From a virus (Duplodnaviria; Heunggongvirae; Uroviricota; Caudoviricetes), in the IMG/VR virus record IMGVR_UViG_2778261084_000002: a stretch of 6,028 bases of DNA. One strand, 5' to 3'. Under the pieces are notes generated by a model, which saw only the letters and a list, made by a program, of their open reading frames with translations, was not told the origin of the DNA and did no database searches. The translations under genes were made by a program, and so were the position numbers. Of the stretch, positions 1 to 6,028 are shown piece after piece; the first letter of the stretch is position 1; each line of letters starts with the position of its first letter.

Positions 1-357
1 CTTGCCGTTCGTGGGGAGTGGCAGGAGCGGAAGATTGCGCAGGTCAGTAAGCCTGCCCCCGCAATTAATATCACACCCGTGGTCCCGGCTCCGCTGCCTC
101 CGGCGCTGGTCCCTGTTGTTGCGGCCAGCTCCCGCCCGGTGGCGGAGGCCATACGATCGCCAGTGGCATCAGTTCCTGCAGCTTCCCGTAATCGGGAGCC
201 GGTTGCCTCCGGATTTGGCGGTGAAATTCATGTTCATCTGCATAACGTTGTTACGCAGAATCCCCGCGAACTTGCGAAACTGGTAGGTGAAATGGTCAGG
301 GCAGAAATGGAACGGCGCGCCCGTGCCGGGCGTGGCAGTTTTTACGATAAAGATTGA
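1..357 (+). CDS. 3' end of a phage tail gene, 5'-truncated by the window edge; Pro/Ala-rich C-terminus lying directly upstream of the gpU-like gene, so possibly a tape-measure (P2 gpT-like) C-terminus
   Basis: Frame 1 is open from base 1 to TGA at 355-357. The mirror copy at 5672..6028 differs in this frame by synonymous changes (ccc/cct, gtc/gtt) and one V/I replacement, whereas the overlapping frame-2 ORF 2..286 accumulates replacements between copies. A GAGGAG Shine-Dalgarno for the next gene sits at 356-361. Product assignment is by gene order only. Confidence 0.45.
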   Translation, partial: LAVRGEWQERKIAQVSKPAPAINITPVVPAPLPPALVPVVAASSRPVAEAIRSPVASVPAASRNREPVASGFGGEIHVHLHNVVTQNPRELAKLVGEMVRAEMERRARAGRGSFYDKD

Positions 358-363
358 GGAGTC

Positions 364-858
364 ATGGCCATGATGATGATCTACGGCATGTTTGTTTTTG
401 AGCTGCGCACATTGCCGCATCAGCAGTTACAGCAAAACAAAAGCTGGCGGCATGTGAAAAATGAACGCGTTAACCGTTCAGCAAGCTGGCAGTATATCGG
501 TGCAGGAGATGATCGCATCGTTCTTTCTGGTGTGCTTTATCCTGAAATTACAGGTGGCGAAGTATCGCTGTCGCTGCTGACCACGCAGGCGTATACAGGA
601 CGACCCTGGCCTCTGATTGATGGCGTCGGGCAGATTTACGGCATGTATGTGCTGACTGAAACGAATACGACCCGTTCCGAGTTTGATCGCTACGGTAAGG
701 CGAAAAAGATAGAATTTTCACTGACCCTTGAACGCTGTGATGAGGATTTGCGGGAGCGCCTGCAATCCTCATCGTTCAGTGATATGCTGTCCGGCTTCAA
801 AGATAAGGTGACATCATCTCTTAACAGCGCGGCCAGTTCAGTTAAAGGGCTGTTCTGA
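364..858 (+). CDS. phage tail protein, P2 gpU-like (164 aa)
   Basis: ATG ORF with GAGGAG at 356-361; alternative in-frame ATGs at 370/373/376 have better spacing. The translation (YGMFVFELRTLPHQ ... IVLSGVLYPEITGG ... RPWPLIDGVGQIYGMYVL ... IEFSLTLERCDE) matches my recollection of the P2 GpU tail protein family. The mirror copy at 5171..5665 differs by 15 nt, 12 of them synonymous. Confidence 0.65.
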   Translation: MAMMMIYGMFVFELRTLPHQQLQQNKSWRHVKNERVNRSASWQYIGAGDDRIVLSGVLYPEITGGEVSLSLLTTQAYTGRPWPLIDGVGQIYGMYVLTETNTTRSEFDRYGKAKKIEFSLTLERCDEDLRERLQSSSFSDMLSGFKDKVTSSLNSAASSVKGLF

Positions 859-866
859 TTTTACAC

Positions 867-898
867 AAAAACCGCTAATGGTCAGATTAGCGGTTTTC
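867..898. terminator. bidirectional rho-independent terminator between convergent gpU-like and invertase genes
   Basis: Perfect hairpin: stem aaccgctaat (870-879), loop ggtcag, stem attagcggtt (886-895), flanked by an A-run upstream and T-run downstream, so U-tracts are available on both strands. The invertase stop codon (887-889, - strand) lies inside the stem. Confidence 0.6.
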
Positions 899-1486
899 AT
901 TTTCCTGAGTCTGCCCGGTTGTTTCTTCAGTCTGTATATCGCCTACAGGGTGATAACGATAAATCGTCGATGTGCCAATGCCGTAAATTATTGCCAGTTG
1001 TTTTCTGTCGTGCCCGTTTTTGATTAGCCTTGCTATTTGCTCATGCTGTTCTTTTGTCAGCTTCGGTCGACGTCCGCCTGTGCGCCCCCTTGCGCGCGCT
1101 GCCGCCAGCCCGGCCAGTGTACGTTCAACAATTAATTCACGTTCCATTTCAGCCAGGGCACCCATCACGTGGAAGAAAAAACGCCCCATTGGAGAAGATG
1201 TGTCTATGCTGTCGGTCAGACTGCGAAAATTAATCCCTCGCTCCCGTAGTTCCCCGACGAGAGAAATCAGATGTTTCATGCTTCGCCCGAGGCGATCCAG
1301 TTTCCAGACAACCAGCGTGTCACCTTTTTGAAGGCGCTTTAAAGCGCGTTTTAATCCCGGTCGGTCTGTCTTTGTCCCGCTTAATTTATCTTCAAATATT
1401 TGTTCACATCCTGCACAAACAAGAGCGTTTCGTTGCAGGTCTGTATTCTGGTCATTTGTTGATACCCTTACATAGCCAATCAGCAC
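887..1486 (-). CDS. site-specific serine DNA invertase, Gin/Pin/Cin/Hin (Din) family, left copy (199 aa from GTG)
   Basis: Translation from GTG (1486-1484) begins (M)LIGYVRVSTNDQNTDLQRNAL with the catalytic Ser in the VRVSTNDQ motif. It has the family's resolvase-type catalytic core (WKLDRLGRS, ERGINFRSLTDSIDTSSPMGRFFFHVMGALAEMEREL) and a C-terminal helix-turn-helix (GIGTSTIYRYHP). A GGGAGA Shine-Dalgarno precedes the GTG. The TTG at 1504 used by the ORF track is probably not the true start. Confidence 0.93.
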   Translation of the reverse strand: MLIGYVRVSTNDQNTDLQRNALVCAGCEQIFEDKLSGTKTDRPGLKRALKRLQKGDTLVVWKLDRLGRSMKHLISLVGELRERGINFRSLTDSIDTSSPMGRFFFHVMGALAEMERELIVERTLAGLAAARARGRTGGRRPKLTKEQHEQIARLIKNGHDRKQLAIIYGIGTSTIYRYHPVGDIQTEETTGQTQENENR

Positions 1487-1540
1487 ACTGAATCTCCCGT
1501 CCAAAAGCGCAAATCATGCCATGCAGGCCAGAAACGGCCA

Positions 1541-1566
1541 TTATTTAAAACCTCGGTTTACAGGAA
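1541..1566. other. left 26-bp invertase crossover site (gix/cix/pix/hix-like), variant form
   Basis: ttatttaaaacc TC ggtttacaggaa: two imperfect 12-bp inverted half-sites around a 2-bp core, at the inner end of the arm and adjacent to the invertase gene. It differs from the right-hand site by TT versus CC at positions 5-6 of the outer half-site and one base in the inner half-site. Confidence 0.8.
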
Positions 1567-1590
1567 ACGGTAAACAGGGCTGGTAACGCC

Positions 1591-2427
1591 GTGCAAAAAA
1601 ATGGCGATACCTTGTCCGGTGGGCTTACTTTTGAAAATGACTCAATCCTTGCCTGGATTCGAAATACTGACTGGGCGAAGATTGGATTTAAAAATGATGC
1701 TGATGGTGACACTGATTCATACATGTGGTTTGAAACAGGCGACAACGGCAATGAATATTTCAAATGGAGAAGCCGCCAGAGCACCACAACAAAAGACCTG
1801 ATGACGCTGAAATGGGATGCACTAAATATTCTGGTAAATGCCGTCATTAATGGCAGTCTTGGAGTTGGTACGACGAATGCGTTAGGTGGTAGCTCTATTG
1901 TTCTTGGTGATAATGACACCGGATTCAAACAGAATGGTGATGGTATTCTGGATGTTTACGCTAATAGTCAGCGAGTATTCCGCTTTCAGAATGGAGTTGC
2001 TATTGCTTTTAAAAATATTCAGGCAGGTGATAGTAAAAAGTTCTCGCTATCCAGCTCTAATACATCCACGAAGAATATTACCTTTAATTTATGGGGTGCT
2101 TCCACCCGTCCAGTGGTTGCAGAGTTAGGCGATGAGGCCGGATGGCATTTCTATAGCCAGCGAAATACAGATAACTCGGTAATATTTGCTGTTAACGGTC
2201 AGATGCAACCCAGCAACTGGGGAAATTTTGATTCCCGCTATGTGAAAGATGTTCGCCTGGGTACGCGAGTTGTTCAATTGATGGCGCGAGGTGGTCGTTA
2301 TGAAAAAGCCGGACACACGATTACCGGATTAAGAATCATTGGTGAAGTAGATGGCGATGATGAAGCCATCTTCAGGCCGATACAAAAATACATCAATGGC
2401 ACATGGTATAACGTTGCGCAGGTGTAA
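1591..2427 (+). CDS. tail-fibre C-terminal (receptor-binding) cassette Sv; reading frame open from 1549 but separated from the arm ATG (1516) by TAA 1546-1548
   Basis: 278 aa from GTG 1591 (frame open from 1549, 292 codons). Gly/Asn/Thr/Ser/Trp-rich composition typical of fibre tips. C-terminus RPIQKYINGTWYNVAQV shares the RPIQ-Y-INGTWYN motif with the opposite cassette. Stop is 3 nt before the tfa ATG. The first ~25 codons inside the segment (NLGLQETVNRAGNAVQKN) parallel the other cassette. No convincing Shine-Dalgarno precedes GTG 1591. Confidence 0.75.
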   Translation: MQKNGDTLSGGLTFENDSILAWIRNTDWAKIGFKNDADGDTDSYMWFETGDNGNEYFKWRSRQSTTTKDLMTLKWDALNILVNAVINGSLGVGTTNALGGSSIVLGDNDTGFKQNGDGILDVYANSQRVFRFQNGVAIAFKNIQAGDSKKFSLSSSNTSTKNITFNLWGASTRPVVAELGDEAGWHFYSQRNTDNSVIFAVNGQMQPSNWGNFDSRYVKDVRLGTRVVQLMARGGRYEKAGHTITGLRIIGEVDGDDEAIFRPIQKYINGTWYNVAQV

Positions 2428-2430
2428 GTT

Positions 2431-2958
2431 ATGCAGCATTTAAAGAACATTAAGTCAGGTAATCCAAAAACAAAAGAGCAATATCAGCTAACAAAGAATT
2501 TTGATGTTATCTGGTTATGGTCCGAAGACGGAAAAAACTGGTATGAGGAAGTGAAGAACTTTCAGCCAGACACAATAAAGATTGTTTACGATGAAAATAA
2601 TATTATTGTCGCTATCACCAGAGATGCCTCAACGCTTAATCCCGAAGGCTTTAGTGTCGTTGAGATTCCAGATATAACAGCCAATCGTCGTGCCGATGAT
2701 TCAGGGAAGTGGATGTTTAAGGACGGAACTGTGGTTAAACGGATTTATACGACAGATGAGCAGCAACAACAGGCAGAATCACAAAAGGCCGCATTGCTTT
2801 CCGAAGCTGAATCAGTCATCCAGCCGCTGGAACGCGCTGTCAGGCTGAATATGGCAACAGACGAGGAACGCACACGACTGGAAGCATGGGAACGTTACAG
2901 TGTTCTGGTCAACCGTGTGGATACGGCAAATCCTGAATGGCCACAAAAGCCTGAATAA
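2431..2958 (+). CDS. tail-fibre assembly protein (Tfa; Mu U / e14 TfaE-like chaperone), 175 aa
   Basis: ATG preceded by AGGTG. N-terminus [24 protein letters not shown]...EDGKNWYEE...FQPDT...[27 protein letters not shown] is the conserved Tfa N-domain, with a divergent C-terminal third. Tightly coupled to the upstream fibre cassette. Confidence 0.9.
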
Positions 2959-2963
2959 AAATT

Positions 2964-2983
2964 AAGGCCCGATAGAGGGCCTT
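2964..2983. terminator. short hairpin between the convergent tfa genes (possible bidirectional terminator)
   Basis: aaggccc (2964-2970), loop gataga, gggcctt (2977-2983), preceded by an A-rich run and lying in the 28-bp gap between the two stop codons. The stem is only 7 bp and the T-tract is weak. Confidence 0.35.
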
Positions 2984-2986
2984 GTC

Positions 2987-3520
2987 TCATTCAGGTTGTT
3001 CGGGAAATGTTACTGGCAGGCTGGAGGTGTCTGTGGATTCGACTTTCTGCGCGTAGAGCATCCACTCGGTTAATTTTTGTTTATTCTCGTCGGAAATGAT
3101 GCCCAGCCGTAGCTGTGAGTCCCATAGCTGGGTTTTATCCCTGACAAGTTGCAACAGGCTTTGCTTTTCATTCTCTGCCTGCTGCCTCTGTTCCTCCTCG
3201 GTATAAGTTCGCTTTATCACTACGCCATCTTTGAACATCCATTTACCCGAAATATCAGCCCGGCGATTTGCTGTAATATCAGGAACCTCAACGACGCTTG
3301 CGCCTTCTGGATTAATTGCTGAAACATCCTTTTCAATACAAATAATAACGTCGTTGTGGTCATAGACCATTTTCAACGTATCAGGCTGAAAGTTCTTTTG
3401 TTCCTCATACCAGTTTTTCCCATCCTCTGTATAAAGCCATTTGATGTTAAATTGTTTCGTTAGCTGGTATTGTTCTTTTGTTTTAGGGTTGCCAGCAGTA
3501 ATATTTTTTAAGTGCATCAT
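2987..3520 (-). CDS. tail-fibre assembly protein Tfa' (second, divergent copy), 177 aa
   Basis: [24 protein letters not shown]...EDGKNWYEE...FQPDT...[30 protein letters not shown]: about 70% identical to the other Tfa over the N-terminal ~105 aa, with an unrelated C-terminus. GGGGAG Shine-Dalgarno upstream; start is 2 nt after the Sv' stop. Confidence 0.9.
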   Translation of the reverse strand: MMHLKNITAGNPKTKEQYQLTKQFNIKWLYTEDGKNWYEEQKNFQPDTLKMVYDHNDVIICIEKDVSAINPEGASVVEVPDITANRRADISGKWMFKDGVVIKRTYTEEEQRQQAENEKQSLLQLVRDKTQLWDSQLRLGIISDENKQKLTEWMLYAQKVESTDTSSLPVTFPEQPE

Positions 3521-3522
3521 AA

Positions 3523-4518
3523 TTAAATACTCCCCGCGTTATACCACGTTCCATTAATGCAATACTGAATTGGCCTTGCCTGAGTTGTATCAATTAATGC
3601 ATCACGGTTTCCGTTAACTGAACCCGTAACGACATAACCTGACCTGTCAGACCAGCCGGGACCATTCCATGTCTGAACAGATGACAGACCGCCAAGGCGA
3701 ATACCTGTAATAAACCTTGAGTTACATTCTGCCTGCGTATATGCACCAACATCTCCCGCAGAGGGTTTGCGGGTCGTGGTGTAAAACTCTGACCAGTCAG
3801 CCTCAAATCCATAACCATCACGCGCTGAACGATAAAAAATACCGCCGTTCCTGTAATTCACGCGGAACTGTACAGCAGGGCAGCTCCCCGTATTCATATT
3901 GAAGTGGAGGATTAATGTCGATGCGCCACCAATATTTGCGTTATAGACCCCGCTATTCCAGTTCCAGCCAACAGCTTTATCATTTCCGACAGTGCTTCCT
4001 GTTTGCCCTAAAGCAAATGCAGGCTGCTGGTTTTTCGTGTTGTAGTCTCGTCGCCAGCCAGGAGCATAAGCATCACCATGATTAATATAGGTGAATTGAG
4101 CGTTAGTAATTCCGCCGCCGCTGGACGTACTCGGCGTAGTAACGCGTATGGTCATTGCGCCGCGAGTGCCAATAACTTCCACCACAGCACCTGCAAGACA
4201 AATATTTCCGCAACCTGTATCTGTAATGACCTTATTATTTGCATAAGCCCATGAGCCTTTGCACATCCAGTAAGGATGGTTAAATGCTCCCTGACTCTCC
4301 AGCCACGAAATAAATTGCGCGGTTGTCCAGACCTGACTATCGCCACCAATATTCAGCCATGAGCTATATGCCCGGCAGGCACCAATATTTTTGGTGAAGG
4401 TATCTTTTCCTGGAATATCTGCACCGTTCTGATTTTTCTGTAATGCGCCAGAAGCCTGATTTACCGTTTCCAGTAAACCGAGGTTTTGGATAATGGCCGT
4501 TTCCGGCCTGCATGGCAT
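3523..4518 (-). CDS. tail-fibre C-terminal (receptor-binding) cassette Sv', 331 aa, currently in frame with an ATG located in the right arm
   Basis: ORF runs from ATG 4518-4516 through the right crossover site into the segment, so MPCRPETAII is arm-encoded and QNLGLLETVNQ... begins within the site. C-terminus RPIQYCINGTWYNAGSI carries the shared motif. No good Shine-Dalgarno precedes the ATG, and an in-frame TGA lies 7 codons upstream, so there is no longer constant N-terminal part. Confidence 0.8.
   Translation of the reverse strand: MPCRPETAIIQNLGLLETVNQASGALQKNQNGADIPGKDTFTKNIGACRAYSSWLNIGGDSQVWTTAQFISWLESQGAFNHPYWMCKGSWAYANNKVITDTGCGNICLAGAVVEVIGTRGAMTIRVTTPSTSSGGGITNAQFTYINHGDAYAPGWRRDYNTKNQQPAFALGQTGSTVGNDKAVGWNWNSGVYNANIGGASTLILHFNMNTGSCPAVQFRVNYRNGGIFYRSARDGYGFEADWSEFYTTTRKPSAGDVGAYTQAECNSRFITGIRLGGLSSVQTWNGPGWSDRSGYVVTGSVNGNRDALIDTTQARPIQYCINGTWYNAGSI
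4466..4494 (+). promoter_or_regulatory. putative sigma70 promoter for the right invertase, overlapping the crossover site
   Basis: -10 candidate GATAAT (4489-4494) with a weak -35 TTTCCA (4467-4472) and 16-bp spacer, ~55 bp upstream of GTG 4548. The mirror position in the left arm (1540..1567, - strand) has AATAAT. Based on sequence inspection only; in characterised Din systems (as I recall for Mu gin and P1 cin) the invertase promoter sits at the adjacent crossover site. Confidence 0.25.
4468..4493. other. right 26-bp invertase crossover site (gix/cix/pix/hix-like), canonical-looking form
   Basis: + strand ttccagtaaaccgaggttttggataa; - strand ttatccaaaacc TC ggtttactggaa. In inverted orientation relative to the left site and 55 bp upstream of the invertase start. 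Confidence 0.8.
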
Positions 4519-4547
4519 GATTTGCGCTTTTGGACGGGAGATTCAGC

Positions 4548-5135
4548 GTGCTGATTGGCTATGTAAGGGTATCAACAAATGACCAGAATACAGACTTGCA
4601 ACGAAACGCTCTTGTTTGTGCAGGATGCGAACAAATATTTGAAGATAAATTAAGCGGGACAAAGACAGACCGACCGGGATTAAAACGCGCTTTAAAGCGC
4701 CTTCAAAAAGGTGACACGCTGGTTGTCTGGAAACTGGATCGCCTCGGGCGAAGCATGAAACATCTGATTTCTCTCGTCGGGGAACTACGGGAGCGAGGGA
4801 TTAATTTTCGCAGTCTGACCGACAGCATAGATACATCTTCTCCAATGGGGCGTTTTTTCTTCCACGTGATGGGTGCCCTAGCTGAAATGGAACGTGAATT
4901 AATTGTTGAACGTACACTGGCCGGACTGGCGGCAGCGCGCGCACGGGGGCGCACAGGCGGACGTCGACCGAAGCTGACAAAAGAACAGCATGAGCAAATA
5001 GCAAGGCTGATTAAAAACGGTCACGACAGAAAACAACTGGCAATAATTTACGGCATTGGTACATCGACGATTTATCGTTACCACCCCGCAGGAGAATCAA
5101 GCGGAACAATAGAGAAGAGTCAGAAAACAAAATAA
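4548..5135 (+). CDS. site-specific serine DNA invertase, Gin/Pin/Cin/Hin (Din) family, right copy (195 aa from GTG)
   Basis: Same core protein as the left copy (12 nucleotide differences, all synonymous, by hand alignment) but a different C-terminal tail after ...IYRYHP (AGESSGTIEKSQKTK versus VGDIQTEETTGQTQENENR). GTG start with GGGAGA Shine-Dalgarno. Confidence 0.93.
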   Translation: MLIGYVRVSTNDQNTDLQRNALVCAGCEQIFEDKLSGTKTDRPGLKRALKRLQKGDTLVVWKLDRLGRSMKHLISLVGELRERGINFRSLTDSIDTSSPMGRFFFHVMGALAEMERELIVERTLAGLAAARARGRTGGRRPKLTKEQHEQIARLIKNGHDRKQLAIIYGIGTSTIYRYHPAGESSGTIEKSQKTK

Positions 5136-5162
5136 CCGCTAATCTGACCATTAGCGGTTTTT
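5134..5162. terminator. bidirectional rho-independent terminator between the invertase and the convergent gpU-like gene
   Basis: aaccgctaat (5134-5143), loop ctgacc, attagcggtt (5150-5159), then TTTTT; A-rich on the other side. Mirror of 867..898. Confidence 0.6.
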
Positions 5163-5170
5163 GTGTTAAA

Positions 5171-5665
5171 TCAGAACAGCCCTTTAACTGAAGTGGCCGC
5201 GCTGTTAAGAGATGATGTCACCTTATCTTTGAAGCCGGACAGCATATCACTGAACGATGAGGATTGCAGGCGCTCCCGCAAATCCTCATCACAGCGTTCA
5301 AGGGTCAGTGAAAACTCTATCTTTTTCGCCTTGCCGTAGCGATCAAACTCGGAGCGGGTCGTACTTGTGTCAGTCAGAACATACATGCCGTAAATCTGCC
5401 CGACGCCATCAATCAGAGGCCAGGGGCGTCCGGTATACGCCTGTGTGGTCAGCAGCGACAGGGACACTTCGCCACCTGTGATTTCAGGATAAAGCACACC
5501 AGAAAGAACGATGCGATCATCACCTGCACCGATATACTGCCAGCTTGCTGAACGGTTAACGCGTTCATTTTTCACATGCCGCCAGCTTTTGTTTTGCTGT
5601 AACTGCTGATGCGGCAATGTGCGCAGCTCAAAAACAAACATGCCGTAGATCATCATCATGGCCAT
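5171..5665 (-). CDS. phage tail protein, P2 gpU-like (164 aa), second copy
   Basis: Mirror of 364..858 with three amino-acid differences (E->D, N->S, S->T) and 12 synonymous changes. Confidence 0.65.
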   Translation of the reverse strand: MAMMMIYGMFVFELRTLPHQQLQQNKSWRHVKNERVNRSASWQYIGAGDDRIVLSGVLYPEITGGEVSLSLLTTQAYTGRPWPLIDGVGQIYGMYVLTDTSTTRSEFDRYGKAKKIEFSLTLERCDEDLRERLQSSSFSDMLSGFKDKVTSSLNSAATSVKGLF

Positions 5666-5671
5666 GACTCC

Positions 5672-6028
5672 TCAATCTTTATCGTAAAAACTGCCACGCC
5701 CGGCACGGGCGCGCCGTTCCATTTCTGCCCTGACCATTTCACCGACCAGTTTCGCCAGTTCGCGGGGATTCTGCGTAATAACGTTATGCAGATGAACATG
5801 AATTTCACCACCAAATCCGGAGGCAACAGGCTCCCGGTTACGGGAAGCTGCAGGAACTGATGCCACTGGCGATCGTATGGCCTCTGCCACCGGGCGGGAG
5901 CTGGCCGCAACAACAGGGACCAGCGCCGGAGGCAGCGGAGCCGGAACCACAGGTGTGATATTAATTGCGGGGGCAGGCTTACTGACCTGCGCAATCTTCC
6001 GCTCCTGCCACTCCCCACGAACGGCAAG
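5672..6028 (-). CDS. 3' end of a phage tail gene (possibly tape-measure C-terminus), second copy, truncated by the window edge
   Basis: Mirror of 1..357; the frame is open to the window edge, with one V/I replacement in the last 92 codons. Confidence 0.45.
   Translation of the reverse strand, partial: LAVRGEWQERKIAQVSKPAPAINITPVVPAPLPPALVPVVAASSRPVAEAIRSPVASVPAASRNREPVASGFGGEIHVHLHNVITQNPRELAKLVGEMVRAEMERRARAGRGSFYDKD

Follow-up and report, generated by a model that had tools for sequence, protein, structure and literature searches.

Among the described systems closest to the locus analysed here is the invertible G segment of phages Mu and D108, whose gene order (Sv, U, U', Sv') is found in the C segment of P1 and P7, with its invertase gene cin, and also in our sequence. 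The P88-like prophages (Xuanwuvirus, Peduoviridae), including phage P88 (NC_026014), carry a fibre gene H that follows the baseplate genes V-W-J-I and has its last third inside such a segment. Their layout is V-W-J-I-H(head), segment and invertase, then gpU, T, E, tube and sheath on the opposite strand, with fibres of 617-764 aa. In the P segment of the e14 element (pinE, stfE, tfaE, tfaP, ycfK/stfP), inversion fuses stfE to ycfK (PMC4272514).

We analysed a stretch of 6,028 bp, hereafter the window, which is one complete contig (NNWW01000090.1) of the draft assembly GCA_002486795.1. An earlier note on this DNA, made from its letters alone, had described both of its fibre cassettes as headless, i.e. 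lacking a constant 5' fibre region on either side. That observation is true for the contig. The fibre switch itself is already known, being the Mu-type switch of a P88-like prophage, and its cassettes are headless only because the contig carries on each side an invertase arm from a different prophage copy. Below, we detail the layout of the contig, the identity of the cassettes, and the evidence for and against a physical join between two prophages.

A fibre segment between two invertase arms

Positions 1553-4481 form an invertible tail-fibre segment of the Mu G-segment type, with the inner order Sv, tfa, tfa', Sv'. It holds two convergent sets of a fibre C-terminus and a chaperone, Sv/tfa on the plus strand (1549-2958) and tfa'/Sv' on the minus strand (2987-4518), and Pfam finds fibre-tip domains in both cassettes. 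The Sv cassette, a variable C-terminal part of the fibre (1549-2427, plus strand; PF21446, Gp34_trimer), is followed by a U-like tail-fibre assembly chaperone of 175 aa (2431-2958, plus strand; PF02413, Caudo_TAP, E=7.5e-38). A terminator-like hairpin (2964-2983) lies between this gene and the convergent U'-like chaperone gene, which encodes 177 aa (2987-3520, minus strand; PF02413, E=2e-36). The Sv' cassette is an ORF of 331 aa (3523-4518, minus strand; PF12604, gp37_C), whose final 37 nt by position (4482-4518) lie beyond the crossover point, within invertase-side DNA.

Going outward from each crossover site, the same three genes are met: a serine invertase, gpU and the 3' end of a tape-measure gene. 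On the left, these are invertase A, a protein of 199 aa of the Gin/Cin/Pin type with a GTG start (887-1486, minus strand; PF00239, E=1e-50, and PF02796), a tail protein of the P2 gpU family (370-858, plus strand; PF06995, E=5e-39), and copy A of the tape-measure end, a gene call of 118 codons and a stop that runs off the contig (1-357, plus strand) and falls under the annotation 'phage tail tape measure protein' in complete genomes. The right arm has invertase B, of 195 aa (4548-5135, plus strand; PF00239, Resolvase, and PF02796, HTH_7), a second gpU (5171-5659, minus strand), which mirrors 370-858 at 97%, and copy B of the tape-measure end (5672-6028, minus strand), again running off the contig. 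At 868-897, the convergent genes for gpU and the invertase are separated by a terminator-like hairpin, which has its mirror copy at 5134-5159. P2-type tail genes stand beside each invertase, on the other strand from the fibre operon, gpU being recognized by PF06995 and the tape-measure end by its identity to annotated genes; gpE, tube, sheath and gpD were seen only in related loci, the contig ending before them. The contig is bounded by an inverted repeat of its ends: positions 1-77 are the exact reverse complement of 5952-6028, and base 78 is the first mismatch between the arms.

In its sites and enzymes, the window looks like a switch of the Gin/Cin/Pin/Hin type. Two gix-like sites of ~26 bp stand in inverted orientation with matching central dinucleotides, the left one at 1541-1566 (TC at 1553-1554) and the right one at 4468-4493 (central dinucleotide at 4480-4481). 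Both contain AAAACC-TC-GGTTTAC, a core identical to that of the Mu gix sites, and the small serine recombinase (Resolvase plus HTH_7) that adjoins the segment in such switches is present twice. We aligned the two sites with those of seven related loci. Each normal locus in the alignment has one head-side site (CCGTTATCGAATACC-TC-GGTTTAC) and one invertase-side site (CCATTATCCAAAACC-TC-GGTTTAC). In the window, the outer half of the left site (1538-1554) reads CCATTATTTAAAACC-TC and that of the right site (minus strand, 4496-4480) reads CCATTATCCAAAACC-TC, both being of the invertase-side type. The alignment thus bears out the claim of the earlier note that the DNA outside both crossovers is invertase-side DNA. 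A constant 5' fibre region abutting one site, present in all related loci examined, is found nowhere on the contig. The double-invertase topology depends on a single assembly path of one short-read contig.

Identity and reading frames of the cassettes

Translated from 1549 to 2427, the left cassette is identical at 291/291 positions to residues 426-716 of a 716-aa fibre encoded by the normal prophage contig L004. The 331-aa ORF matches residues 421-744 of a 744-aa fibre (contig L028) at 320/324 positions and Mup52/S' of Mu at 319/327 (98%). The relatives fuse these cassettes in frame to a constant part of ~424 aa, as one would expect from the statement in the note that cassettes of this kind depend on an upstream constant region.

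At the DNA level, window positions 1541-4927 share ~94% identity with Mu/D108 over G plus gin, and the segment shares 95% with the P7 C segment. Invertase B is 86% identical to Mu Gin, and over positions 4548-4927 the identity to the 5' region of Mu gin, where the Fis-dependent recombinational enhancer lies, is ~94%. The arms (tape measure, gpU and invertase) and the segment of P88-like prophages are 94-99.9% identical to those of the window. Judged by these identities, we assign the segment to a P88-like (Xuanwuvirus, P2-family) prophage as the orthologue of the Mu G segment, and read both ORFs, with their chaperones, as the standard exchangeable C-terminal cassettes (Sv and Sv') of a Gin-type invertible segment. 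On their own, the cassettes are not genes; they become the end of a fibre, of 716 or 744 aa, only behind the ~424-aa constant head.

Both states of the switch occur among near-identical prophages whose segments are ~99% identical: STK77-E joins the head to Sv (716 aa), and C11 joins it to Sv' (744 aa). Likewise, EC12 expresses Sv and CT30 expresses Sv'. Both segment orientations were seen in these relatives, not in the strain of the window.

The note had also likened the cassettes to orphan genes, in the manner of stfP/stfE of e14. This likeness is not supported: e14 keeps a head on one side, and the two cassettes match the working ends of complete fibres at 99-100% identity. Orphan fragments of the e14 kind, i.e. 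short, degenerate and with no full-length counterpart, are ruled out by identities of 100% and 99% to intact fibre ends. The cassettes show no sign of decay, and their counterparts in fibres of 716 and 744 aa are intact.

A further reading is that the cassettes are stand-alone genes, expressed from their own starts as short fibre-tip proteins, e.g. as receptor blockers like StfE2 of e14. Two observations speak for it: the 331-aa ORF is open from its ATG, and a chimeric fibre-tip protein that inversion produces in e14 blocks adsorption of T2 (PMC12529663). Nevertheless, we consider this reading very improbable. The in-frame stops that the earlier note had placed upstream of the arm ATGs are there, TGA at 1489-1491 before the ATG at 1516 and its mirror at 4545-4543 before the ATG at 4518, in each case nine codons 5' of the start. 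The note was likewise right that no Shine-Dalgarno sequence precedes the starts, an AGGAGG-like motif being absent before both ATGs. Of the products of ~300-330 aa that it expected, the 331-aa ORF exists and the left one, of 303 aa, does not: the frame that opens at ATG 1516 ends after ten codons at a TAA (1546-1548, ATT ATT TAA) inside the crossover site, and the left ORF is instead one of 278 aa from a GTG at 1591 (1591-2427).

An in-frame TAA (ATC TAA) is also present in the invertase-side alleles of phage P88 and of Escherichia coli strain 15A, so the extension from the arm ATG is not conserved as coding sequence. At the corresponding half-site position, the right arm and Mu read ATC CAA. 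Across alleles, the extension of the silent-side ORF is open in some and closed in others. The same ORF stands on the silent side of Mu, where Mup52 (328 aa), an ORF of the same kind, starts 28 nt outside the annotated boundary of the G segment. On the silent side of the switch, it is normal for an ORF to begin at an ATG outside the segment boundary. The homology between the two cassettes that the note had seen to extend inside the sites is present as well, for ~16 codons (to ~1602/4432) rather than ~25.

The expression signals argue in the same direction. A promoter scan of the window gave fewer promoter-like sites than shuffled sequence, and none that faces a cassette from an arm; the sole promoter-like match beside a crossover site (4467-4494, plus strand) is directed at the invertase gene and not at the cassette. 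With 99-100% identity to the ends of full-length fibres, nothing about the cassettes hints at independent evolution.

Origin of the two invertase arms

The arms are inverted repeats of one another in two blocks, 1-895 against 5134-6028 at 97% identity and 939-1602 against 4432-5095 at 95%. The differences amount to 25/895 and ~30/664 positions (3-5%), and the blocks are separated by a patch without homology (896-938 against 5096-5133). Invertases A and B are identical at 181/183 positions apart from their C-terminal tails, which differ because of the non-homologous patch. In other genomes, both tail types are found next to the same Sv cassette, which makes the 3' end of the invertase gene a mosaic joint.

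Each arm has a natural counterpart. The left arm (1-1561) differs by two mismatches from a normal prophage of strain 19AR1724, and the segment with the right arm (1550-6028) differs by one mismatch from the normal prophage on L004, in which the head precedes Sv. Sequence of the A type gives way to that of the B type within the crossover site, between 1549 and 1562. When the arms were searched separately in complete genomes, their best matches (99.9%) came from different strains, and no complete E. coli genome carrying both arm alleles was found. The exact invertase A protein is widespread beside normal switches. The suspicion of the earlier note that the junction joins two elements is therefore well founded as to the arms, which differ by 3-5% and each match a different natural prophage.

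These comparisons dispose of a simpler origin for a contig with a palindromic overall shape and symmetric ends, namely the folding back of one prophage template on itself, whether through a hairpin, a chimeric library molecule or an inverted dimer. A single template would give identical arms. The arms instead differ, with a non-homologous patch, different invertase C-termini and a separate natural allele on each side, and we regard a fold-back palindrome of a single prophage as excluded by this divergence for all practical purposes.

The alternative of an assembly error is more serious, and sequence alone cannot tell a real rearrangement from such an error. Two normal P88-like prophages in opposite switch states, each cassette having its head in the real genome, could have been mis-joined in assembly by pairing the invertase-side entry of one with the exit of the other, provided that their segments are the same throughout, or over the first 466 nt at least. 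We judge a mis-join of this kind quite possible, its chance falling somewhat short of even. Window positions 1-4497 and 1537-6028 can each be aligned over their full length with normal prophages whose switches are in opposite states; the left and the right three quarters of the contig are each a normal prophage, and a wrong pairing would yield the same contig. The segment of the 19AR1724 type has an exact run of 466 nt (1550-2015) in common with that of the window, as the mis-join would need.

The ends of the contig are relevant here. In SPAdes, k=77 is the default maximum for 150-nt reads, and we take the inverted identical 77-mers at the two ends to be the pattern of a branching vertex in a k=77 de Bruijn graph of this assembler. 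Such ends fit a loop whose path runs out of a collapsed inverted repeat and re-enters it in reverse. Exact runs of 221, 121 and 203 nt are common to the two arms. These three internal repeats are longer than k, so that the contig is a resolved path rather than a single graph edge, and this, together with the 77-mer bounding the whole contig, speaks for a mis-join. On the other hand, because both arms equal natural alleles, the phasing is correct across all three shared runs, and the rest of the contig is thus phased free of error. Faced with an unresolved repeat that has two entries and two exits, SPAdes normally ends the contig there instead of joining across it, which counts for a physical join. 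Repeats of 466 to 2,900 nt are at or past the limit of what paired ends can reach, where a break is expected and not a confident wrong join.

The rarity of the arrangement also has to be considered. In a search with the whole window, where a place had to cover at least 80% of it to count as the same arrangement, an invertase-segment-invertase layout was found in none of 5,426 complete E. coli genomes, 50,697 phage records and 72,556 plasmids, an absence that fits a mis-join. The best places in the complete E. coli genomes cover 75% and comprise one arm with the segment, a fibre head standing at the other end. About 30 other contexts, from three look-ups of exact proteins, are all normal, with the head on one side, save for truncated remnants. 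The T-gpU block occurs in 1,577 copies in 1,403 complete genomes, and the ~170 surplus copies imply that well over a hundred poly-lysogens were sampled with zero double-invertase cases.

Two side observations were made in these searches. In several complete genomes (H1, H10, H14 and H16), an IS element, either ISVsa5 or IS100, interrupts the match to the window. Two records filed as plasmids (CP054252.1 and CP054244.1; 23-27 kb), from ST131 isolates labelled 'bone infection of foot', hold partly P88-like tail, invertase and fibre DNA, and could be excised or mis-binned prophage DNA.

We also probed complete E. coli genomes for the reciprocal junction, using a synthetic head-segment-head query. 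It gave a single match, NZ_CP077477.1 (E. coli O111:H21 strain 15A), in which two convergent full-length fibre genes surround a chaperone pair (26,807-31,510). The record contains a palindrome at 10,333-47,984 whose arms of 17,495 nt are 100% identical, as well as another, with arms of 20 kb or more, that crosses its origin. Its first base falls exactly on the inner border of a crossover site. A third prophage copy, of normal structure, lies just upstream, and pgsA meets a truncated replication endonuclease gene at a repeated junction; besides 10,333-47,984 and the origin, these features involve positions 5,167,000-5,197,000 of the record. The zig-zag resembles either a fold-back artefact of long reads or an inverted triplication. 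With its 100%-identical arms, the palindrome at the origin and the start of the record at the site, we did not accept 15A as clean evidence of a reciprocal junction. The record demonstrates that assemblies can contain such layouts at this locus, without deciding the question of the join. That the only head-segment-head case in a closed genome has a suspicious fold-back, and that assemblies do err at this locus, adds to the case for a mis-join.

Published work lends plausibility to a physical exchange between prophages. Among P88-like and Mu-like prophages of ST131, inversions within prophages, verified by PCR, are reported, as is the translocation of a fibre segment between isolates at a shared repeat of 70 bp (bioRxiv 10.1101/2022.05.07.487787). 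Invertases are also known to act in trans on the segment of another prophage (PMC12529663). Taking the evidence together, we infer with even odds that the join in the window is a physical exchange between prophages, the likeliest of the readings considered.

The source strain carries two diverged copies of the invertase-gpU-tape-measure arm, and in the contig a single segment links the invertase sides of copies A and B. On the reading of a physical exchange, two co-resident prophages may have exchanged at their crossover sites, or by homologous recombination between oppositely oriented segments. If the prophages lie in direct orientation, non-equivalent crossover sites, or segments in opposite states, would act as inverted repeats, and recombination between them would invert the DNA between the prophages, leaving an invertase-segment-invertase structure here and a head-segment-head structure elsewhere. 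Since both invertases are intact and the pair of sites is inverted, flipping of the segment could continue, and neither orientation would give a fibre; both phages would be disabled until the inversion reverts. We think it unlikely, though not far-fetched, that this is general behaviour, i.e. that the four sites (or opposed segments) of co-resident P88-like or Mu-like prophages form one multi-site network, with a reversible chromosome inversion that silences both fibres.

If the join is physical, it would provide an example of co-resident prophages that recombine via their host-range switches, invert part of the chromosome and thereby disable both phages. This would be relevant to prophage domestication and to genome rearrangements, as a by-product of a well-understood system and with no new mechanism. 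If it is a mis-join, the lesson would be that short palindromic draft contigs around invertible segments should not be taken as biology without the reads.

Comparison with known switches

In Mu, the left crossover site lies inside gene S, behind a constant part of 169 codons, and there is a single invertase gene, whereas in the window both sites abut invertase genes. In the P88-like prophages, a head of ~424 aa precedes one site; in the window, this head side is occupied by a second invertase arm, diverged by 3-5% from the first. P88-like segments themselves vary in content. In the prophage of strain 19AR1724, the nearest relative of the left arm, a third type of silent cassette (GGTTTACGAGAACTC; 8552-9262 of contig L033), annotated as a partial tail protein, replaces Sv', so that P88-like segments combine at least three cassette types.

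The P segment of e14, a defective prophage, resembles the window in that a Pin-type invertase adjoins convergent fibre-end cassettes. It keeps the head on one side, and hence offers no parallel for the absence of a head from both. Nearer to the headless cassette than e14, among natural cases, are the truncation remnants L005 and L009, which with seven similar places have a headless Sv' with the same 331-aa ORF and the same invertase arm. In L005 and L009, homology is limited to window positions 3244-6028, and tape measure, gpU and invertase are kept. They differ from the window in that the segment is cut inside tfa', where homology ends at window position 3244, and is followed by unrelated genes and, near yecA-tyrP-ftnA, an integrase, with no second arm.
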